From an uncultured archaeon (GTDB taxonomy: Archaea; Asgardarchaeota; Thorarchaeia; Thorarchaeales; Thorarchaeaceae), in NCBI GenBank assembly GCA_964354495.1, contig CAYHAA010000012.1, positions 1 through 32,000 on the forward strand: 32,000 nt of DNA. Direction: 5' to 3'. Positions within the stretch are counted from its first letter, which is position 1; every line of letters begins with the position of its first letter. The notes under the pieces were generated by a model. The model searched no databases and had not been told where the DNA came from. It saw only the letters and a program-made list of their open reading frames with translations. Shown one piece after another: positions 426-10,579 of the stretch. A program made the translations under genes and the position numbers.

Positions 426-514
426 CGTGGATCACGAGCTTGGTAGAAAACCGGCAAGTATATGAATATTCCATAGCGAATCAGAATGAAGTGCACAGGA
501 AGAGAGTGATTAGC

Positions 515-1453
515 ATGGAAATGATGCCATCAGATGTAGAGCGCCATCTCCTTGAGGCTATCGTGCGAAATTCTCGGGATACTCCTGCAATTCTGGGCCA
601 GTCAGTTGGCAAGAGCCGGAACTGGGTATCGCGCACTATCAGAGGATTCGTGAGGAGAGGTATCATACGGGGTTACACGACGATTATTGATCCTGCTCAG
701 GTTCAGGGTGCAAGAGTCACAGTTCTATTCATGAAGAGCAATCCTCGCGAACAGGATGTGAGCGAGAAGCTCATGGAGATAGAAGAACTTGAGTCACTCG
801 ACGGGATTGCTGGTGATTTCTCACTTCTCGGATTCTTCCGATTTGATCGTCAGGGTGCATTTGAGGATTTACTGGACCGAGTGGATAGCGTGGTGGCAAC
901 TTCGGGGGCTGGAAAGTACAATCTGGTCCAAGTACTTACTATATACATGAAGAACCGGTTCAGAATCATCCCCAATGACTCTTCGGAGTCTTACCTCTCT
1001 CAGAAAGAGCTCGCACTCCTTAGGATAATATACTGTCATAAACCAACTCTTGAAAGCCCTTTCCCGCTGACTCAGGAAGAGATTGGTTCTCGGATGAATC
1101 CCCCCCTTAGTCAACCTGCAGTTTCGAAATCTATTGAGAAGCTCTTGACAAAACGTGCAATAATTGGCTACTCTATAAACACGAATTTTTCCCTAATTGG
1201 CCTGCCTGTGAAGTTCTTTGTCAGAATAAAAGTGAGTCCCGGAACTGCGAGTGATATCGCGCAGAAGCTCACTAGTATGCGCGAAGTATGGGACCTCTAT
1301 CGTACAAGCGAAGATTATAGCCTTCTTGCCATGGTCAGAACAAGTAGCGTCATGACCTTCAACCAGTTTCTCAGACGATTGTATGAGAGTGAGGATGTCC
1401 TGGATACTGAGTCTTACATTTCGTTAGAAGAGTGGTTCCTCCCCATTAGATGA
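515..1453 (+). CDS. Tandem (double) Lrp/AsnC-family transcriptional regulator
   Basis: Two HTH + RAM units: ILGQSVGKSRNWVSRTIRGFVRRGIIRGYTTIIDP and SQPAVSKSIEKLLTKRAIIGYSINTNFSLIG...WDLYRTSEDYSLL. ATG at 515 preferred over the track's TTG at 440, which would leave only 14 bp to the divergent ahcY start. Confidence 0.8.
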   Translation: MEMMPSDVERHLLEAIVRNSRDTPAILGQSVGKSRNWVSRTIRGFVRRGIIRGYTTIIDPAQVQGARVTVLFMKSNPREQDVSEKLMEIEELESLDGIAGDFSLLGFFRFDRQGAFEDLLDRVDSVVATSGAGKYNLVQVLTIYMKNRFRIIPNDSSESYLSQKELALLRIIYCHKPTLESPFPLTQEEIGSRMNPPLSQPAVSKSIEKLLTKRAIIGYSINTNFSLIGLPVKFFVRIKVSPGTASDIAQKLTSMREVWDLYRTSEDYSLLAMVRTSSVMTFNQFLRRLYESEDVLDTESYISLEEWFLPIR

Positions 1454-1596: not shown

Positions 1597-3654
1597 CTAG
1601 AAACTCCATACATGGAATGAGGTTTCTCCATATTGGAAAGCCCGATATTCAGTTATCCCAAAGAAAGAATATCTTTCTATTAGTTCGTCAATGACAGCTG
1701 TTGCATTTGCCAAATCAAGCTGACAGAACTTTGCATCGGGCATCGCGAGGATGGAATAGCTGTTGTTTCTCAGATATTCAATGAAATAGCCTGCAGATTC
1801 ATCACCCTCATCAGGAGCCCAAGGATCCCCGAAGCCACTCATGGTATAGTAATAGTCCCCGTAATTCCTCATGTAGTAGTTGAATCCACTTTGCCCGAAT
1901 CTTGAGTAGAGAAGACTAGAGTTCCCATTGATGATACTATGAACATATTCTGCGGCCTCATCATATGCTAGATACTCGTTATTCACAGAATAGTGAATCT
2001 GCTGCGGAATAGAAATCGCCCGTTCTCCTACTCCAGCAGCGAATGAGGTAAGTAGAATAATAGTCACGCTCAGCACTGCGATCTTCTTGACACTCTGAAT
2101 TGACGGTGTTGGTATTCCTTTCTTTCCAGCTGCTCTTGAATCTGTGATAATCTTCAGCGTTTCCTGCAGAAATGCTCCAATAAGGAAAAGCGATGAGATT
2201 GCAAGTAAAGACAAAGCTGGTACAAAAAAGCGATCAACTACATGAGGCCAACCTGCATCAAGCGTGAAGAATGCATACCAAGAAGCGTATGTTAGAGTAA
2301 TAGTAAACAGAATCCATGAGCGTTTCCAGACAGCAAGAAGAAACACCAGAAAAATGCTTCCATATCCGAGCGTTCCCCAAAAGACTCCCATTTGAAGATC
2401 AAGCCTAAAGAGATAGTCAAATAGACTGGGTGGTAGAAGATATGTTGGATCTGGGACATACTCCCGACTCACCATTCCTCCCAATTGTACAATTATGAGC
2501 CATGGGCCGAATATTGTTAAGTATAGTAGACAGGATTTGAACCACAGTGTCAGACTCTTTGCATGATTGGATCTGGATATCGCCCATAGCAATAGGATGA
2601 ACACAAAAACAGCGGCTTGAACAAGAATCACATTTTTCCATAAGCTTCCAGTTGCGAGTGATAGAAACAGGGAAAGAAGATAGATGTTGCTGACATTGTT
2701 TCCTGAGGATTTGAAGAATCGGATGAGTAAGAAACAATTCAATGTAAAGAACATCGCCACTCCCGCGGTCAGCATGATTTGAGCAGAGAATACTATCGTT
2801 GGCGTGTAGAGGAGGAAAATCCACCCTGCCACCATCCCCAGTATCTTATGAATTCTGTTTGCTTGCTGCCCCTGCCCCGAGAAGGCTTCCAGGAGGTCTG
2901 ATGTGATTTTCATGATGAACACTGCGGACAGTACCATAAGCAGCACATCAAACAACCTTAGAATCAATAGAGTGACATCTGTGTAACCAAAGAGAAGGAG
3001 TGGCGCCACGTAGGATACTGGCTGTAGCGGACCGAATCTTGCAATATCCCACTCATGTACTACAAAGGATGATGATAGAACAACTAGTGCGCAGAATGCG
3101 CCTCCGATTATTATGTGGGCAACGCGCGACAGCATAGTCTTCTCAAACAAGGAGCGGAAGAACGACTGAATCCGATTCTCTCCTATTATGCCAGCTGCGA
3201 TCAGAATCACTATTGACAGAACAATAACAGCGAGGGAAATAGCAATCCCGACTAATGTCGAATCCAAACGAGAACCAAGTGTGAGTATCCTCTCGAGAAA
3301 CGCGATTCTTCCAAGATGGACTGGTTCATCATCAATTGGTTTTATCGGGGCGAGCAAAAGAGGAAGTAGCAGCAAGGCGTATGCGAATGATGTGCCTGCA
3401 AAGTAACCTACTGTCACTCCATTTCTCTTCAACAGAAACACAATGTCGATCTTCTTGCTTGGTTCGCCTAGAATGTCAGTTAAGAGGTATCCCAGAATCT
3501 CAGGTATGATGAATGCGATTGTAAAAACAAATGCGATTTGCAGTATTATTCCATCTATTAGCATCCAAATCGGGAACAGGAGATAACATGCAATGAGAAG
3601 TACGTATGTAGAGGCTCTCAGTAAGGTTTGGTACGATATGTGACCGATTTCCAA
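1597..3654 (-). CDS. Multi-pass membrane protein, probable GT-C-fold (ArnT/PMT_2-like) glycosyltransferase
   Basis: More than 12 hydrophobic segments. Acidic loop motif PIDDEPVH, then LRLFDVLL, TGSLWKN and DRFFVPALSLLAI (RYxxPxxP-like), plus a soluble C-terminal domain. Sits in a sugar-nucleotide/GT2 locus. TTG start uncertain. Confidence 0.65.
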   Translation of the reverse strand: MEIGHISYQTLLRASTYVLLIACYLLFPIWMLIDGIILQIAFVFTIAFIIPEILGYLLTDILGEPSKKIDIVFLLKRNGVTVGYFAGTSFAYALLLLPLLLAPIKPIDDEPVHLGRIAFLERILTLGSRLDSTLVGIAISLAVIVLSIVILIAAGIIGENRIQSFFRSLFEKTMLSRVAHIIIGGAFCALVVLSSSFVVHEWDIARFGPLQPVSYVAPLLLFGYTDVTLLILRLFDVLLMVLSAVFIMKITSDLLEAFSGQGQQANRIHKILGMVAGWIFLLYTPTIVFSAQIMLTAGVAMFFTLNCFLLIRFFKSSGNNVSNIYLLSLFLSLATGSLWKNVILVQAAVFVFILLLWAISRSNHAKSLTLWFKSCLLYLTIFGPWLIIVQLGGMVSREYVPDPTYLLPPSLFDYLFRLDLQMGVFWGTLGYGSIFLVFLLAVWKRSWILFTITLTYASWYAFFTLDAGWPHVVDRFFVPALSLLAISSLFLIGAFLQETLKIITDSRAAGKKGIPTPSIQSVKKIAVLSVTIILLTSFAAGVGERAISIPQQIHYSVNNEYLAYDEAAEYVHSIINGNSSLLYSRFGQSGFNYYMRNYGDYYYTMSGFGDPWAPDEGDESAGYFIEYLRNNSYSILAMPDAKFCQLDLANATAVIDELIERYSFFGITEYRAFQYGETSFHVWSF

Positions 3655-4070
3655 GAATGATGCATCCCTAGACCGTTCTAGAACTCGACAAAATTGGCGG
3701 TATAAAAAGGTTGCAGCTGACCTGAACCAATACTCGATTAGCTTACTTCATCAGATAAGTCATGGTGTACTGTGAGTGGACGCACTAGGTCGTGCCTTCA
3801 AACGGGCATCTGATTGTAGGGCATCAAAACGCTATGACGATGCAGTCAGCATTCTCAAGTCCGTATTAAAAGAAGATGAATTTGAAAGGCAGATTCGAAA
3901 TTAGTTCAACTGACGGGTTGGCAGCAGATACGAAGCTTCTAAGCTGGCGCAAGGGCTGTGTCTATCTCAGCTTGAATCAGATTAAAAGCACTATTCTTAA
4001 GATAGATTATCTTCAACCGAATGTATGCTTGTCTTGTTGGTTTTAGCTCCTGAAAACAACCGAGTAGTGA

Positions 4071-5363
4071 TTGCCAGTGAATGAAGAATCGATGATTCCG
4101 AAAGAAATTCTTGATCAACTAGAAAGGATATTCGAGGAACAAAAGAGGAAAAATGCATCATCATATGAGTTTCCACTTGTCAAACCAACATTTGATTTTG
4201 ACGAAATCAAGGAAGCACTCGAATCTCTTCTTTCGACTAAAGTGACAATGGGTGAAAAGGTACGTAATTTTGAAGCATCTTTTGCAAAATACATAGGTGT
4301 TCGTAATGCGATTATGGTCAACTCAGGTTCTTCAGCGAATCTTCTTGCTATGGCAATTCTATCAAATTCAAGTATTGAAAATCCACTAATGCCAAATGAC
4401 AAGGTGATAGTTCCCGCGTTGACGTGGCCAACGAGTGTGTATCCAATTGCTGATGTGGGTACATTGCCTGTATTTGCAGATTCGAAGCTTGCCACCCTGA
4501 ACTTGGACCCCGATTCGGTTAGAGCCGCCATGACCCCTGATGTTAGGGCAATCATGGCAGTCCACCTAATCGGAAATCCATGTGATATGAATGAGCTGAA
4601 TGAGATTTGTGATGAGCATGGACTATATCTTATTGAAGACTGCTGTGAAGCTCATGGGGCAGAATTCAATGGCAAGAAGGTAGGGTCATTTAGAGACCTA
4701 GGGACATATAGCTTCTTCTTCTCCCACCATATCTCTACCATCGAAGGTGGAATGGTTGTTACGGATAATGATGAGTATGCAGAACTTGCTAGAGCTCTTC
4801 GAGCCCATGGTTGGACCCGGGATCTAGTGAACCGCAAGAGGGTGGAGAGCAAATATGCAAATCGAGACCCTCGGTTCCTATTCATCAATCGGGGATACAA
4901 TCTGCGTCCGACCGAGATACAAGGCGCATTTGGAATTCACCAGATCAAGAAACTGGACGACTTTGTGAGGCTACGAAGAAGACATGCTTCTATCTTGCTT
5001 GATGCTCTAGCAGATGCAAAGATTGACATCCATGTACAACATGAGCAGGAGCGCGGAAAGCATAGCTGGTTTGGTTTTCCAATGGTTCTCAAAGAGGGGG
5101 ATTGGGCCAGCAGAAGCAAGGTCGTTGAGAGAATGGAAAAGCGGGGAGTCGAGACGAGAGTAGTAATGGGAGGCAATATGGAAGTTCAGCCCGCAAGGCA
5201 GACTTATCCCGCAATGGCTCCAGTGCCGTTGGGTGTAGCTAGTCATGTGGATCGTCTTGGAATGCTCATTGGAGTCCACGCAGAGATGACCGATGAGGAA
5301 TGTAATGACCTCTCGGAGAGAATCATCTCTGCACTGAGAGAGAAACAGACCGATTTGAGGTAA
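4071..5363 (+). CDS. colD: DegT/DnrJ-fold PLP enzyme, GDP-4-keto-6-deoxy-D-mannose 3-dehydratase (ColD)-like
   Basis: NSGSSANLL, EDCCEAHGA, SFFFSHHISTIEGG (His at the Schiff-base Lys position), LRAHGWTRDL, GYNLRP. Adjacent to fcl and gmd. Alternative ATG start at 4092. Confidence 0.8.
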   Translation: MPVNEESMIPKEILDQLERIFEEQKRKNASSYEFPLVKPTFDFDEIKEALESLLSTKVTMGEKVRNFEASFAKYIGVRNAIMVNSGSSANLLAMAILSNSSIENPLMPNDKVIVPALTWPTSVYPIADVGTLPVFADSKLATLNLDPDSVRAAMTPDVRAIMAVHLIGNPCDMNELNEICDEHGLYLIEDCCEAHGAEFNGKKVGSFRDLGTYSFFFSHHISTIEGGMVVTDNDEYAELARALRAHGWTRDLVNRKRVESKYANRDPRFLFINRGYNLRPTEIQGAFGIHQIKKLDDFVRLRRRHASILLDALADAKIDIHVQHEQERGKHSWFGFPMVLKEGDWASRSKVVERMEKRGVETRVVMGGNMEVQPARQTYPAMAPVPLGVASHVDRLGMLIGVHAEMTDEECNDLSERIISALREKQTDLR

Positions 5364-5368
5364 GTGAT

Positions 5369-6307
5369 ATGGAAAAGACAGACAGGATATATGTTGCGGG
5401 ACATAGAGGCATGGTTGGAGGAGCGATTCTCCGCAACTTGGAATCCTCCGGGTACACAGATGTCCTGACTGCTACAAGGGAGCAATTAGACCTGACGGAT
5501 CAACATGCTGTAAGAGCATGGTTTGAAGTGAATAGGCCAGATTATGTATTCCTTGCTGCAGCAAAAGTTGGGGGAATCCAAGCGAACATTTCTTCACCTG
5601 CGACCTTCATCTATGACAATCTGATGATTCAGACGAACGTTATTCATAGTGCATATCTGTCTAGTGTGAAGAAGCTCGAGTTCCTTGGGAGTTCCTGTAT
5701 CTATCCCAGAGAATCAAAACAACCGATGAAAGAAGAGTACATACTGACTGGTCCAATGGAACCGACAAATGAGGCATATGCAGTTGCCAAGATTGCAGGG
5801 TTGAAGATGTGCGAATTCTACAGAAGACAATACGGATTCAATGCAATCACAATCGTTCCGCCAAACCTCTACGGCCCTGGAGATGACTTCTCTATAGAGA
5901 AGTCTCATGTAATTGCAGCCCTCATACGGAGGTTCCATGAAGCAAAGATTCAGAGGAAAAAAAGCGTCACCCTCTGGGGAACAGGAAGCGCTCGAAGGGA
6001 GTTCATGTACGTTGATGACCTAGCGGATGCAGCTGTCTATTTGATGAACGAGTATGATGATGACCAGTTCATCAACGTGGGGACAAGTAGCGATATGTCA
6101 ATCCTTGAGCTTGCGGAATTGGTGAAAGAGACTGTTGGTTTCAAGGGCTCAATCAAACTTGACAGATCAAGACCTGATGGTATGCCAAGAAAACTAATGG
6201 ACAGCTCTAGGTTCGGTCGCATGACTTGGAATAGGATAACGGACATCCGGACAGGCCTGAGACTGACTTACGAATGGTTGCTGGCAAATGCAGAGGCCGT
6301 GCCATAG
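5369..6307 (+). CDS. fcl: GDP-L-fucose synthase / GDP-colitose synthase (ColC)-type epimerase-reductase
   Basis: YVAGHRGMVGGAI, FLAAAKVGGIQAN, FLGSSCIYP, EPTNEAYAVAK, PPNLYGPGD, WGTGSARREF, PDGMPRKLMD. Confidence 0.92.
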   Translation: MEKTDRIYVAGHRGMVGGAILRNLESSGYTDVLTATREQLDLTDQHAVRAWFEVNRPDYVFLAAAKVGGIQANISSPATFIYDNLMIQTNVIHSAYLSSVKKLEFLGSSCIYPRESKQPMKEEYILTGPMEPTNEAYAVAKIAGLKMCEFYRRQYGFNAITIVPPNLYGPGDDFSIEKSHVIAALIRRFHEAKIQRKKSVTLWGTGSARREFMYVDDLADAAVYLMNEYDDDQFINVGTSSDMSILELAELVKETVGFKGSIKLDRSRPDGMPRKLMDSSRFGRMTWNRITDIRTGLRLTYEWLLANAEAVP

Positions 6308-6309
6308 CT

Positions 6310-7365
6310 CTACCCCGGTGTTTCTTCACTATTACTCCACAGGAGACCGTTCTTCTTGAGGAACTCGATACCTTCACTTGGAGGCTCAAGTCCGACACTT
6401 AACATGTCATAATCAACCATTATCCTCACCAGTTCCTTGAATCTTACCTTTGGATTCCAGCCGAGCTTTTTCCGTGCCTTTGAGGGATCAGATAGAAGAT
6501 AGTTGACATCCGAGGGTCGCATGTAACGTTCGTCCTGTTTGATGTATTTCTCCCATTCAAGACCTGCGTAGGAGAACGCTTCAGTGATTAGATCTCTGAC
6601 GCTGTGGGACTCACCAACTCCGACAACATAGTCATCGGGCCTGTCAGCTTGCAGCATTTTCCACATGAGTTCAGTATACTCCGGAGCGTAACCCCAATCG
6701 CGTTTTGCATCCAGATTCCCAAAGTACAGGACATCGATCTTCTTTGCCAAGATTTCTGCGATCCCATGAGTCACTTTTCTCGTGACGAATGTCCTTCCAC
6801 GGCGGGGAGATTCATGATTAAAGAGAATTCCAGAGCAATTGAACATTCCATATGCTTCTCGATAATTCACTGTGACCCAGTGTGCATAGACTTTTGCAGC
6901 AGCATACGGACTCAACGGATGGAATATGGTCTGCTCATTCTGGGGAGGTGGACTTGCACCAAACATCTCAGACGATGATGCTTGATAATAGCGAACATCC
7001 AGTTTGCTCTGTCTGATTGCTTCTAACAGAGCAATGGTCCCAACACCATTCACCATTGCAGTGTATTGAGGAAGGTCAAATGATACACGAACATGACTCT
7101 GTGCTGCTAGATTGTAGACCTCATCAGGTTCAGTTTCCCGAATCAAGAGGCTCAACGAGGAGGCATCGGTCACATCGCCATAGTGCAACTTCAAATGTAC
7201 GTCAGCTTCATGAGGGTCTTGGAAGATGTGAGTTATCCTCTGTGTATTGAAAGTGCTAGTACGACGGATGACTCCATGGACGTCATATCCGCGTGACAAG
7301 AGAAACTCAGCGAGATATGATCCATCTTGTCCAGTGATTCCTGTGATAAAGGCAGTCTTACTCAT
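6310..7365 (-). CDS. gmd: GDP-mannose 4,6-dehydratase
   Basis: [70 protein letters not shown]. Confidence 0.97.
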
Positions 7366-7807
7366 TCATTTCATCCTCTAGAACTGAGTCTTCGTCTTTC
7401 ACTGATACGGGAGAGTAGACCAGAATTATACCCACCGCAATTGCGATTAGTCCTGCAGTATTCAAGTAATCAACTGACTCTGCAAATAACAATATGCCCA
7501 AAGTGAAGACTGTCATCACCGAGAAGGCCAAGAAGAATCCTTCCGATATTCCGAGTGGATTCTTTGACAGGACTACTCCCATGATTAACTTGGCAACCAA
7601 GGATAGGCCAAAGGCTGCAATAATCGGAGCACTAAGAATGAAGGCCAGCCAAAACTCACCCTCCAAGAGCCGTTCAAAAGTGCTACCAACGTCCATGTTT
7701 CCCATTTTCAGCAGGACATCACCGGCGCCATAGATTGCAGTAGCGATAAGAAGAGGAAACCAGAAGGTTGCTCGTGCATACGACGTCATCTTGTCCATCT
7801 CTATCAC
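7358..7807 (-). CDS. 4-TM SMR/EamA (DMT superfamily) protein, ArnE/ArnF-like
   Basis: Four hydrophobic helices with [27 protein letters not shown] and [12 protein letters not shown]. Start overlaps the upstream stop (GTGA); 3' end overlaps the gmd start by 8 bp. Confidence 0.72.
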
Positions 7808-8178
7808 ACCAAAAGGATTATTCCAATCGTGACTAGCGCAAATCCGACAAGCTGGATCTTTTTCAGGTCCTCATTGAATACGATACGACCAGCAAGTACT
7901 GAGAATACTGCGACTGAAGCCAAGTAGATTCCCCCTGCCAAGTAGAGCGGGTTTGATGCCAATATAATTCCATAGAGCCCTTTTACGGCCAGCGTGATGA
8001 ATAATGATAGAATCACAATTGGCGAAAAGAGAAAATGTTTCCAAGATTTCGTATCAAGACCTCTCTCTGATTCCGCAAATGAAGTCATCCCTCCCTTCTT
8101 GAATAGGATTTCTCCTATCACGTGAACAGAGGCGATTCCCATTAATATCAAGATAAGGGTTAGAGTCGCAGAATCCAT
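7804..8178 (-). CDS. 4-TM SMR/EamA (DMT superfamily) protein, ArnE/ArnF-like, paralog of the neighbour
   Basis: [39 protein letters not shown]; 124 aa; SD-like GGTGAG upstream of the ATG. Confidence 0.75.
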   Translation of the reverse strand: MDSATLTLILILMGIASVHVIGEILFKKGGMTSFAESERGLDTKSWKHFLFSPIVILSLFITLAVKGLYGIILASNPLYLAGGIYLASVAVFSVLAGRIVFNEDLKKIQLVGFALVTIGIILLV

Positions 8179-8211
8179 TAGCGATACTCACCGTACAGCA
8201 TTGCAGAGCGC

Positions 8212-8928
8212 TTATGGATACGCTTTATTAATGAATCTCCTCCGCAGAAGAAGTTCGCTCAGGAAGAGTTTCAAGTAAGACAGGCCTACATCAAAGGATT
8301 TCACCTTCGACACGCCTCCAATCCTCCTGTGTTCATGAGTAGGGATCTCGGTTATTCTCATATTGAGTTTTGAAGCGCGAATGGTCATCTGCATTTCAAC
8401 TTCAAATGTCGAGTGAGGCAGGTTGAGATCCTTCATTCTCTCTCTCCAGATGGCGCGAAAACCATTTACCGCATCGGTGACCTTGGCTCTGAAAATCAGT
8501 CGACAAATAGCTGTGAAGAAGAGATTTCCGAAGGTTCTCAGGATTCCTGCGTCATCACTTGTCCCACCCTTGCCGAAACGAGTGGCTATGACAAGATTGG
8601 ATGTCAATACTGCATCTAGGAGTCGCGGGATATCGTCTGGATCTTCATTTCCATCTGGACTGAAAAAGAGGAGAATATCTTCCTTACATTCTTCAAGAGC
8701 GATTAGGAAGGCGCTCCCACGCCCGGGAGATCGACGCTTGGCTACTCGTATTCCTTTGCTCTCCCAGAACTCCCGCGTGCCATCAGTGCTGCCTCCGTCA
8801 ACCAAGAGCGAATTGTCGAACAGAGTGTGAGGTATCTTGTCAGCAAGAGCTCGGGACCCATGAATCTCGTTGTATGTCAATATGATCAATGCCTTTGTGG
8901 GAGTATGCCCTCTCTCTATGATGACCAT
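8212..8928 (-). CDS. GT2 glycosyltransferase, DPM1/polyprenol-phosphate glycosyltransferase-like
   Basis: LTYNE, VDGGSTDGT, GRGSA, FFSPDGNEDP, VIATRF, TDAVNGFRA, FEVEMQM, EIPTHEHRRIGGVSK. Confidence 0.88.
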   Translation of the reverse strand: MVIIERGHTPTKALIILTYNEIHGSRALADKIPHTLFDNSLLVDGGSTDGTREFWESKGIRVAKRRSPGRGSAFLIALEECKEDILLFFSPDGNEDPDDIPRLLDAVLTSNLVIATRFGKGGTSDDAGILRTFGNLFFTAICRLIFRAKVTDAVNGFRAIWRERMKDLNLPHSTFEVEMQMTIRASKLNMRITEIPTHEHRRIGGVSKVKSFDVGLSYLKLFLSELLLRRRFINKAYP

Positions 8929-9093
8929 CGAAATATCTCCGTACGACAGCTGTTAGCATGCATCCTGATAGAAAAAGGGAATACTATAATAATCCATCAG
9001 TTTGAAAAATGAAACTCACAACGGGGAACATTTTTCCAGCAACTCATTTCGCATCAAAGCAGTTGATAAGGGAATGAGAGAGATGCGATAGTA

Positions 9094-9801
9094 ATGAAAC
9101 GTCCTACTGTGGCCCTGGTCTTATTGGTAAAAAACGAGCTGGAGCCCATGAAAGAGGTCATCCCAAAAGTGGACACCGCTCTCTTTGATGACCTTCTTTG
9201 TATGGATGGGCATTCAACAGATGGAAGCGTTGAGTTTCTCGAATCACGGGGCATTCGTGTAGTACAGCAGAAGGAGAGAGGCAGAGGAAAAGCTGTGATT
9301 GAATCAATTGAACAGACAGACGCTGATGCGCTCCTCTTCTTCAGTCCAGATGGAAATGAAGATCCAAGTGACCTGCCACATTTGATTGACACAATGATAG
9401 CTCATCATGCTGATCTGGTAATTGCCTCAAGATTTACCGAGGGCTCAGTTAGTGACGATTCTGATGATCCCTATAAAATCAGAAGAGCTGGGAATATGTT
9501 CTTTTCCAGACTTACCGGGCTGTTTTGGGGTGGCAGTGTCACTGATGCAATTAATGGCTATCGTTTGATAAAGCGAAACCTTTTGAAACATCTAAGGCAA
9601 GATGCGCAGGGCTACAATATCGAAATTCAACAGACAATTAGATGTCTCAAATTAAAGAGGAGAGTGGTTGAGATTCCCACTAGAGAATTGGAAAGAGTGG
9701 GTCCCGCAAAGCAATCACCAACTCTCAAAATGGGATCACAATTCACCAGAGTAATCCTAAAGGAGCTCTTCTTGGGGACTCGTTTTCTCTCAAAGAGCTA
9801 G
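9094..9801 (+). CDS. GT2 glycosyltransferase, DPM1-like, divergent paralog of 8212-8928
   Basis: LVKNE, MDGHSTDGS, GRGKA, FFSPDGNEDP, VIASRF, TDAINGYR, IEIQQT, EIPTRELER. Confidence 0.88.
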   Translation: MKRPTVALVLLVKNELEPMKEVIPKVDTALFDDLLCMDGHSTDGSVEFLESRGIRVVQQKERGRGKAVIESIEQTDADALLFFSPDGNEDPSDLPHLIDTMIAHHADLVIASRFTEGSVSDDSDDPYKIRRAGNMFFSRLTGLFWGGSVTDAINGYRLIKRNLLKHLRQDAQGYNIEIQQTIRCLKLKRRVVEIPTRELERVGPAKQSPTLKMGSQFTRVILKELFLGTRFLSKS

Positions 9802-10051
9802 CTCACTGTTCTCCAACATATGCCAAGCTCATTTGCTCTCTCAAATGCACGTTGCATCTCAACATCTCCAACCCTTCGACTAATGATAAACTGAAGATCA
9901 TAGATGCTGAGGTTCTCTATAATTGTCTGAACGATATCATGGAGAATCTTCCAAAACCAAAGAAGTTGGTACTCAAGTAAGGTCACCAAGACCAAGATTC
10001 TCGAGCTTGTTTTCGGGTGGTCTTCCTGTCTTTCTGTTCCATCCACGGTAT

Positions 10052-10579
10052 TCATACTATGTCTTCAACTGCGCTTCCATATCTGGGGCATGGCCCAAGA
10101 TGCATGATTGCACTGGCAATCAAAAAAGCCGTCCAGATATCAAAGGTCGGCATAAACAAGAGAAATAGCGAACCAATAATGTGATACGGATTTACCCAAG
10201 GCCAGATAATAGAATTATACCAGTGCATCGGAAAATCGAGCACCAAATGTGTTATCACTCCAAGGAAACAAGATACTGCCATCTAGGGAATTACTCGACA
10301 TACATGGTTCAGTTCATCTCTCTCAACCCCGAAGACAAGCGACACAATCGGCGCTTACAGAAAACGTGTGATAGCAGCCGCAAGCAGAGTTTCAATCGTC
10401 AAAGCACCAAGAAGGCAGTGCAAGAAGAGATGGTCTGGAAGACTGGCAAAGAACATCCACATAAATGGGACTTCAATGTCAGGTATGACTGAGCCAACGA
10501 CCAATCCTGGCAGGGACAGACGCTTGTCGGCCTTGGAGACAAGAAACGCAAATAGATAATGGAGATGCGTAGTCGGCAT
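10052..10579 (-). pseudogene. DUF4184 / membrane metal-dependent hydrolase-like gene disrupted by two in-frame stops
   Basis: One frame reads MPTTHLHY...GSVIPDIE...DHLFLHC...ITRFL*APIVSLVFGVERDELNHVCRVIP*MAVSCFLGVITHLVLDFPMHWYN. TAA at 10355-10357, TAG at 10283-10285. The H, PD, H and HxxxD motifs are spread across the fragments. Confidence 0.7.

Follow-up and report, generated by a model that had tools for sequence, protein, structure and literature searches.

A candidate three-component glycosylation island with its own GDP-deoxysugar genes in a Thorarchaeaceae archaeon

The window analysed here is a 32,000-nt stretch of DNA from an uncultured archaeon of the Asgard family Thorarchaeaceae (assembly GCA_964354495.1, contig CAYHAA010000012.1, positions 1 to 32,000), whose genome measures 3.3 Mb and is 97.7% complete. 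At positions 1597-9801 it carries an island of genes that may serve to make a deoxysugar, load it on a lipid carrier and transfer it outside the cell. In order along the map of open reading frames (ORFs), these encode a 685-aa membrane protein (1597-3654, minus strand), a ColD-type protein of the DegT family (4071-5363, plus; 430 aa), an Fcl-like short-chain dehydrogenase/reductase (SDR; 5369-6307, plus; 312 aa), Gmd (6310-7365, minus; 351 aa), two small proteins with four transmembrane (TM) helices, called B (7358-7807, minus) and A (7804-8178, minus; 124 aa), and two family 2 glycosyltransferases (GT2), called GT2a (8212-8928, minus; 238 aa) and GT2b (9094-9801, plus; 235 aa). Protein B is 149 aa long from its GTG start; database versions begin at the ATG 6 nt downstream, at 7798, and give a 146-aa form. 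Family scans against Pfam, NCBIfam and the PDB recognized two Glycos_transf_2 domains, Gmd, a ColD-like DegT protein and an Fcl-like SDR, beside the two small hydrophobic proteins and the one large membrane protein. The gene list and coordinates of a first-pass annotation of the same DNA were thus reproduced, including the second GT2, the colD-fcl genes and the large membrane protein with a DDEPVH motif that it had placed around a central operon.

That operon, running from GT2a through the two small proteins to gmd, is tightly coupled, and the overlaps claimed earlier for its last three genes can be read directly in the DNA. The GT2a stop codon is followed by a 33-nt spacer with a GGTGA element 8 nt ahead of the ATG of gene A, the TGA stop of gene A overlaps the GTG start of gene B (GTGA), and gene B and gmd share 8 nt (ATGAGTAA). 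GT2b is transcribed divergently from GT2a across a 165-nt AT-rich intergenic region (8929-9093), and the gene of the 685-aa protein diverges from colD across a 416-nt non-coding spacer (3655-4070). From the letters alone, we infer that 8929-9093 likely holds the promoters of both GT2a and GT2b, and that a TTTTTATA-like element on the minus strand of 3655-4070, ~45 nt upstream of the start of the large gene, may be a promoter. Two related Asgard loci have a HypC-like 79-aa gene and an NTP_transferase gene, possibly a sugar-1-phosphate nucleotidyltransferase, between colD and the large membrane protein gene (L002 8773-9920, L014 13901-15048), where the window has the 416-nt gap. No further glycosyltransferase was detected near the GDP-sugar genes within the window by the ORF map and family scans.

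The sugar-nucleotide genes are the most readily assigned. Gmd scores 485.9 bits against TIGR01472 and passes its equivalog cut-off of 415. The DegT protein (316 bits against the Pfam model) has E. coli ColD/WbdK (2gms) as its top PDB match, at 284 bits (E 1.8e-83, residues 33-409), as compared with 208 bits for CDP-sugar 3-dehydrase E1 and 173 bits for perosamine synthase. In its active-site motif, SHHISTIEGG aligns to SHHIATMEGG of ColD, with His replacing the Schiff-base Lys. The 4071-5363 product is therefore predicted to be a ColD-type GDP-4-keto-6-deoxy-D-mannose 3-dehydratase, a pyridoxal phosphate/pyridoxamine phosphate enzyme of the DegT family. The Fcl-like protein matches the GDP-L-fucose synthase model NF047922 over its full length at 464.7 bits, just below the cut-off of 500, and E. 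coli Fcl (1e6u) at 336 bits. This score fits either an Fcl or a ColC-type GDP-4-keto-6-deoxyhexose epimerase/reductase. The gene is the sole one of its kind in the genome, the other SDRs being only 29% identical, and its product stands nearer to true Fcl and may hence act as one enzyme for both the fucose and the colitose branches. Since the chemistry of Gmd, ColD and ColC/Fcl is established, the locus can very probably make GDP-L-fucose and, via ColD, GDP-L-colitose. A survey of monosaccharide pathways found the fucose and colitose pathways missing from TACK archaea.

The 685-aa protein has no sequence match in Pfam, NCBIfam or the PDB, the search of its family profile against the PDB included, and an hhalign comparison of the family with E. 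coli ArnT, taken as one sequence, fell short of significance (E 0.34). PMT_2 is weakly matched by 2 of 17 relatives, and a distant homolog from locus L045 lies just over the cut-off (26.8 vs 26.1 bits). Relatives are rare: 9 were found in a 5.8-billion-cluster database and 14 among 1.84 billion representatives. We built an AlphaFold2 model on 17 family sequences, which reached a mean predicted local distance difference test score (pLDDT) of 86.7 and a predicted template modelling score (pTM) of 0.90. In an exhaustive structural comparison with VIA-align, the model matched A. fulgidus AglB (Z 25.9), yeast Pmt2 (Z 25.3), ArnT (Z 24.6), ALG12 (Z 24.6), human STT3B (OST-B, 6s7t; Z 23.1), Pmt4 (Z 22.6), PglB (Z 21.9) and AftB (Z 20.8), over spans of 352-466 residues. 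The top 20 matches (Z 11.7-25.9) are all glycosyltransferases of the C fold (GT-C) or the GT-C-like subunit U of glycosylphosphatidylinositol transamidase, and the first unrelated chain follows at Z 10.5. Foldseek ranked ArnT first both in the PDB (E 2.5e-5) and among Swiss-Prot AFDB models (E 3e-8), and the nearest AFDB and ESM-Atlas clusters belong to GT39/83, RgtA-D-like and ArnT/PMT_2 families. The GT-C fold, for which the first-pass annotation had asked a structural check, is thus almost certain in the model, and the protein is best described as a GT-C enzyme of the ArnT/PMT-like class that founds its own sequence family.

The structural matches begin at about residue 75, with core TM1 at 79-100, and a C-terminal alpha/beta domain occupies residues ~560-685. 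The two N-terminal TM helices would thus be an addition to the GT-C core, and DDEPVH (residues 108-113, after core TM1) would lie in the first outer loop, which in GT-C enzymes harbours the catalytic acidic residues. By approximate alignment offsets, the residues that we take to be ArnT D55, Pmt2 D92/E93 and AglB D47 fall near query residues 107-111. Of 17 aligned family members, 16 span the loop, and these keep the motif G/D-D-E/A-x-x-H down to 20% identity, with two departures, GGE in P0012 and a missing His in P0020; position 109, 110 or both are acidic in each of the 16. R206 and R475 are invariant or nearly so. One homolog (L015 5502-7582, GCA_016840365.1) is split into ORFs of 428 and 267 aa, by a frameshift or an assembly error.

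GT2a and GT2b are 42% identical and both match PF00535; the genome holds no other member of their subfamily. Neither has a TM helix; each ends in one amphipathic C-terminal helix. The sole PDB relative of both is the Dol-P-mannose synthase (DPMS) of P. furiosus, 5mlz (GT2a E 2.6e-10), Dol-P standing for dolichol phosphate. Their best curated models are AglJ, a haloarchaeal Dol-P-hexose transferase and mycobacterial PpgS, and these as well as ArnC stay below cut-off. In the P. furiosus enzyme, Asp91 binds the metal, Arg117 and Arg131 are among the ligands of the Dol-P phosphate together with Ser135 and Lys178, and DADxQHPP is the donor motif (PMC12992685). The aligned Asp92, Arg117 and Arg131 of the GT2s are invariant in 12 of 12 sequences, with Ser135 changed to Asn and Lys178 to Glu. 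These residues favour a polyprenol-phosphate acceptor and leave room for a different donor, being proof of neither.

A maximum-likelihood tree of 18 GT2s separates the two paralogs. The GT2b clade (support 99/99) accompanies Gmd and Fcl in loci with ColD and in loci without it. The GT2a clade has a support of 87/88 for its five core rows, with L045_x joining only at an open fork, and in 5 of its 6 loci ColD lies on the same contig; loci that lack GT2a show no ColD. This parallel distribution suggests that GT2a takes the ColD product and GT2b takes fucose. As a hypothesis, GT2a is thus a candidate Dol-P-colitose (or Dol-P-deoxyhexose) synthase and GT2b a candidate Dol-P-fucose synthase.

Elsewhere the genome encodes one STT3/AglB oligosaccharyltransferase (926-aa frame; contig 3 134662-135903, L055), away from the locus, and a third GT2 of 447 aa that adjoins a polysaccharide-deacetylase-like gene (contig 8 62069-62722, L054). 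As a guide to the housekeeping Dol-P-sugar synthase the third GT2 was uninformative, since it is of a different GT2 type, and a search with the AglJ model found no canonical TM-anchored Dol-P-mannose synthase in the genome.

A and B, the two small proteins, are paralogous to each other at 30% identity (E 2e-13). Each has four hydrophobic helices, and their genes lie side by side in all loci. Both match many families of the drug/metabolite transporter (DMT) superfamily weakly, among them families of small multidrug resistance (SMR) type: MdtJ, EbrA, ArnF, EmrE and EamA for the B family, and EamA, TMEM234, EbrA and ArnE for the A family. No family cut-off is neared across the superfamily (MdtJ, EbrA/B, EmrE, ArnF, ArnE, EamA, TMEM234). 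MdtJ gives 18 bits for the window protein against a cut-off of 122, and E 1.7e-6 for the best family member; ArnF reaches E 2.1e-3 at best and ArnE E 1e-2 to 0.1, with P0003 scoring 12.8 bits against an ArnE cut-off of 92. The ArnE NCBIfam model run against the organism's own genome gave nothing at E <= 0.01. An hhalign comparison of the small families aligned only TM3-TM4, with a probability of 67% for EmrE and 2-4% for ArnF/ArnE, and does not discriminate. Protein language-model neighbours of the pair are short EamA-domain clusters and an ArnE/F-like cluster.

We aligned A and B with E. coli ArnE, ArnF, EmrE, MdtI and MdtJ in MAFFT, anchoring TM1 on a G-x4-K pattern. At the position of EmrE Glu14, the A family has an invariant His19 and the B family an invariant Tyr23, where ArnE/ArnF have Ser/Ala. 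Four residues further on, an invariant Glu/Asp in the A and B families faces Gln in both ArnE and ArnF. His19, Glu23 and Lys27 are all invariant in the A family. Hence the pair bears no small-cation-exporter signature, and the grouping with such exporters that the first-pass annotation had named as speaking against its proposal is not borne out; by hidden Markov model (HMM) the pair is a remote DMT/SMR relative that reaches no family. The Lys+Arg bias is -5 to -8 in 8 of 8 members of the A family and +2 to +7 in 11 of 11 members of the B family. These opposite biases in 19 of 19 sequences point to opposite topologies, predicted as N-in for B and N-out for A. A review of SMR proteins notes that an opposite bias marks heterodimeric antiparallel SMR pairs and that lipid-transporting SMRs lack the central Glu (PMC9574504). 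By these signatures the predicted pair is SMR/DMT-like and resembles ArnE/F, which fits A and B as candidate flippase subunits in an antiparallel heterodimer.

TMEM234 (PF10639), a eukaryotic 4-TM protein of the DMT clan, is weakly matched by 8 of 8 A-family members (best E 0.0027); our literature search found no function assigned to it. We also considered reading the two GT2s with the two 4-TM proteins as a couple of type-III DPMS enzymes, each split in two. This was rejected, as the pair stays constant while the number of GT2s varies, and the small proteins are DMT/SMR-like and gave no GtrA match in Pfam scans.

To follow the genes across genomes, we used the contigs with homologs of the large or the small protein together with a sample of 301 genomes of the phylum. 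The named homologs come from Sifarchaeia, Promethearchaeota and Thorarchaeota metagenome-assembled genomes. Within the genus, the large and the small protein occur in the same 2 genomes, of 25 and 28 searched, which makes the island an accessory one. Other Asgard contigs repeat this gene set, with the large protein down to 38% identity, so that the arrangement is not due to chance. A DPMS-like GT2 directly adjoins the A-B pair in 11 of 11 distinct pair-carrying loci, with gmd nearby in most and one or two GT2s per pair, and the GT-C gene is often adjacent to this triad or replaced by another GT-C gene. The genes are thus syntenic in several Asgard families, and the co-occurrence in other genomes on which the earlier proposal depended is observed. 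In the 301-genome sample, 8 genomes have the pair and 6 have the GT-C family. Three genomes have both, in each case no more than 4 kb apart, where ~0.16 genomes would be expected if the two were independent, a figure that is no formal test as the genomes are partly kin.

Individual loci show which parts can be exchanged. L002 and L014 hold the full set, including the 38%-identical GT-C. In L003, GT2b is found with the pair, Gmd, Fcl and the GT-C, and both ColD and GT2a are missing. In L012, a GT-C recognisable by Pfam as GT87/PMT_2 stands in place of this GT-C family. Two loci from another Asgard family, L045 and L046, carry a distant homolog of the GT-C, in L045 of the PMT_2 type, adjoining a 4,6-dehydratase and ColD. 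GT2a and an Fcl-like gene are further members of L045, and beside these genes, at 4338-6587 (G166 contig 93), a 379-aa protein without a known family and a 365-aa LPG_synthase_TM protein (PF03706, MprF flippase-type) stand in place of the pair, which looks like a non-homologous replacement of the putative flippase. That non-homologous analogues can take over in this way is, among the indirect evidence, what most strongly supports the assigned roles. In the lineage of L002 (12048-13353), L014 (17176-18481) and L015 (7614-8919), genes of 147 aa and 207-241 aa without a family follow the GT-C gene. They are not found beside the GT-C gene of the window and may be lineage-specific partners.

Together, our results make it fairly probable that the island encodes an accessory archaeal three-component system for extracytoplasmic glycosylation, which would use Dol-P-fucose/colitose and bring its own sugar supply. 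In the first step, which is well supported, Gmd would turn GDP-mannose into GDP-4-keto-6-deoxymannose, and the single Fcl-like enzyme would reduce this product to GDP-L-fucose; alternatively, ColD would first remove the 3-OH and the same Fcl-like enzyme would then give GDP-L-colitose. The GT2s would next load the 6-deoxy or 3,6-dideoxy hexose onto dolichol phosphate, GT2b probably taking fucose and GT2a colitose. By analogy with the proposal for ArnE/ArnF, the antiparallel DMT/SMR-like heterodimer of A and B would then move the Dol-P-sugar to the outer leaflet, and it may dock the GT2s as well. Finally, in the modelled GT-C fold, the acidic motif of the first outer loop would serve the transfer from Dol-P to an acceptor outside, most plausibly a glycan already attached to surface proteins. 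Only 2 of ~28 genomes of the genus carry the island, so that it probably serves to vary the cell surface, as serotype-converting systems do. The first-pass annotation had proposed such a route of a GDP-derived deoxy/dideoxy sugar through Dol-P; the GT-C fold, the lack of a cation-exporter signature in the pair and the co-occurrence now speak for it, and we still infer the donor sugar, the flipping and the acceptor. A more specific version is put forward with clearly less confidence: it is conceivable that the island provides the first lipid-phosphate-linked L-fucose and L-colitose donors, with two paralogous TM-less synthases, one per GDP-sugar (GT2b for fucose, GT2a for colitose), joined physically to the new antiparallel DMT/SMR-like heterodimer as a synthase-flippase unit, and with an orphan GT-C family bringing the sugar to surface glycans.

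Several observations weigh against the proposed Dol-P-fucose/colitose system. The GT-C family occurs without the other genes nearby in L004 and L005, so the link between the pair and the GT-C is frequent, not obligatory. In the phylum sample, three genomes with the GT-C family have no detected pair, and five genomes with the pair have no detected member of this GT-C family. The best HMM matches of the pair are to the polyamine/drug exporters MdtJ and EbrA, not to ArnE/F. The Tyr switch (EmrE Tyr60), kept by E. coli ArnE and ArnF, is absent, with Gly in A and Glu86 in B at this position. Because of this missing switch, and with scores far under the cut-off, we do not count the pair as members of the ArnE/F family. 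The AlphaFold2 monomer model of the 146-aa protein is poor (pLDDT 58, pTM 0.34). The GT2s have a conserved SPDGNEDP where the P. furiosus enzyme has its donor motif DADxQHPP, the first Asp of DAD being replaced by Ser, and their nearest characterised relatives use GDP-mannose or UDP-hexoses. The correlation of GT2a with ColD comes from few, related and phylogenetically structured loci, and its one apparent exception, L047, is a 10.8-kb contig that also lacks gmd. Lastly, a phrase search of an incomplete literature found no paper on dolichol- or undecaprenyl-phosphate fucose, by which novelty is not proven, and neither fucose nor colitose on polyprenol phosphate was found in the searchable literature, so that the proposed donor has no precedent there.

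The last of these points also counts in favour of a generic glycan island, in which the GT2s are ordinary Dol-P-mannose, Dol-P-glucose or first-sugar (AglJ-like) synthases, the GT-C transfers mannose or glucose, and GDP-fucose and GDP-colitose are used by soluble glycosyltransferases encoded elsewhere. A Dol-P-mannose synthase and AglJ are indeed the best relatives of the GT2s, an NTP_transferase that is possibly a mannose-1-phosphate guanylyltransferase lies beside the cluster in other loci, and larger islands such as L002 also hold GT1 and GT4 genes. We nevertheless consider this explanation unlikely. It does not account for gmd, which is translationally coupled to the GT2-pair operon and stays adjacent across Asgard families, nor for the way the GT2a clade tracks ColD. 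The window has no other glycosyltransferase near its GDP-sugar genes, and the donor-binding motif of the GT2s is unlike that of GDP-mannose enzymes.

A second alternative concerns the pair, which might mainly tether or activate the GT2s at the membrane, with flipping being spontaneous or left to another protein. The GT2s are without TM helices, and the triad of GT2 and pair is the most constant part of the cluster. Rv3632 is reportedly a tether/activator of this kind for mycobacterial PpgS. Type-II DPMS has the same split design, with DPM2/DPM3 for human DPM1 (PMC12992685). What makes such a role on its own quite unlikely in our view is that the pair bears the hallmarks of DMT/SMR dimers, namely paralogy, predicted opposite topology and conserved intramembrane charged residues, that the number of GT2s per pair varies from one to two, and that the protein found in place of the pair in L045 belongs to a lipid-flippase family and is no simple anchor. 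Tether and flippase roles of the pair are not mutually exclusive. Finally, an unrelated SMR/EamA-type exporter of small molecules (polyamines, drugs or metabolites) that merely sits within the operon would agree with the best HMM matches, to MdtJ, EbrA and EamA-type exporters, but is highly improbable, as the proton/cation-binding Glu14 of SMR exporters is missing in all members, no exporter-family cut-off is approached, and it would stay unexplained why the pair strictly adjoins a DPMS-like GT2 in each locus.

Three-component extracytoplasmic glycosylation is well known in bacteria, with one characterised archaeal case. The proposed Dol-P-fucose/colitose system most recalls ArnC/ArnE-ArnF/ArnT of E. 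coli and Salmonella, with which it shares GT2 loading, a small paralogous 4-TM pair without the central Glu and an ArnT-type GT-C, as well as overlapping genes in an operon, as in E. coli arnT-arnE-arnF. Flipping by ArnE-ArnF is itself a proposal. Unlike in the Arn system, no sequence homology to ArnT is detectable in the 685-aa protein, the similarity of the pair to ArnE/F is marginal (E 2e-3 to 0.1) with the Tyr switch missing, the GT2s lack the TM helices of ArnC and would take a GDP-sugar instead of a UDP-sugar, the carrier is presumably dolichol phosphate, and lipid A is impossible as an acceptor.

The combination of synthase, flippase and GT-C, adding a side-chain sugar outside, is also that of the bacterial GtrA/GtrB/Gtr* and CsbB/GtcA/YfhO systems and of the pentofuranose system (Kelly et al. 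2024, PMC11127046). As in seroconversion systems, the distribution is accessory and patchy, which is typical of surface-variation modules, and the flippase appears interchangeable, being GtrA, SMR or MATE in bacteria and an SMR-like pair or an LPG_synthase_TM protein here. The island differs from them in its archaeal host, in the predicted GDP-derived L-6-deoxy or 3,6-dideoxy hexose, in having the sugar-nucleotide pathway inside the module, in the absence of TM helices from its GT2s, and in the new sequence families of its flippase candidates and GT-C.

Among archaea, Haloferax volcanii charges dolichol phosphate with mannose through AglD; AglR participates in translocating the product, and AglS carries out the transfer outside (PMC3871713). 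There too a sugar on a separate dolichol phosphate crosses the membrane and joins a protein-bound glycan outside, and the GT2s of the window weakly match the related haloarchaeal AglJ and Dol-P-hexose transferase models. The first-pass annotation knew of no characterised archaeal example of this combination; for the general logic this system is a characterised precedent, although it uses mannose and a different flippase candidate. AglR is reported to be 28% identical to Agl15, a proposed flippase (PMC3871713).

Gmd, a ColD with the His motif and an Fcl/ColC-type epimerase-reductase are likewise all present in the colitose pathway of E. coli O55 and Yersinia pseudotuberculosis. Unlike those genes, the ones described here are archaeal and are linked to lipid-carrier GT2s and a GT-C, not to O-unit glycosyltransferases. 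With type-II (human DPM1/DPM2/DPM3) and type-III (P. furiosus) DPMS, the GT2s share a DPMS-like catalytic domain and the arginines that bind the Dol-P phosphate (PMC12992685). A TM-less catalytic subunit is the type-II design of human DPM1, encoded here beside small membrane proteins, and synthesis and flipping may be physically coupled, as proposed for type-III enzymes. The differences from DPMS lie in the 4-TM DMT-like small proteins, for which no relation was found either with DPM2/3 or with the GtrA-like domain of type-III enzymes, in the altered donor motif and in the predicted non-mannose sugar.

The island thus most likely represents a pathway of the bacterial type built from new protein families, and its lipid-linked sugar would be one that has not been described so far. 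We know of no described system that carries fucose or colitose on a lipid phosphate, and Asgard glycobiology is to our knowledge almost unexplored. The single Asgard glycoproteomics study that we checked mentions no deoxyhexose. If the proposed system is correct, it would provide a new class of glycosyl donors, a new GT-C family recognisable by fold alone, a new DMT/SMR-like flippase candidate with clean sequence signatures, and a natural pair of paralogous synthases for mapping donor specificity. The identity of Dol-P-sugar flippases is, as far as we know, a long-standing open problem, those for Dol-P-mannose and Dol-P-glucose in eukaryotes being still unidentified; a small, genetically defined and reconstitutable archaeal candidate would make this question directly testable. 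Should A and B be true Dol-P-sugar flippases, it is tempting to speculate that the likeness to TMEM234 could lead toward the eukaryotic Dol-P-mannose/glucose flippases. The patchy distribution of the island suggests a role in the diversification of Asgard cell surfaces, possibly under virus pressure.

Two further observations concern the borders of the island. The first is a 337-aa regulator encoded at 440-1453 (plus), immediately downstream of the GT-C gene and on the other strand, which has two helix-turn-helix regions and, at its C-terminus, an Lrp/AsnC ligand-binding domain (PF01037, 55 bits); it has no counterpart at this place in the related loci examined, so that a link to the island is no more than possible. 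Beyond GT2b lie small ORFs at 9798-10055 (minus, 85 aa) and 10181-10492 (plus, 103 aa), both without a Pfam match.

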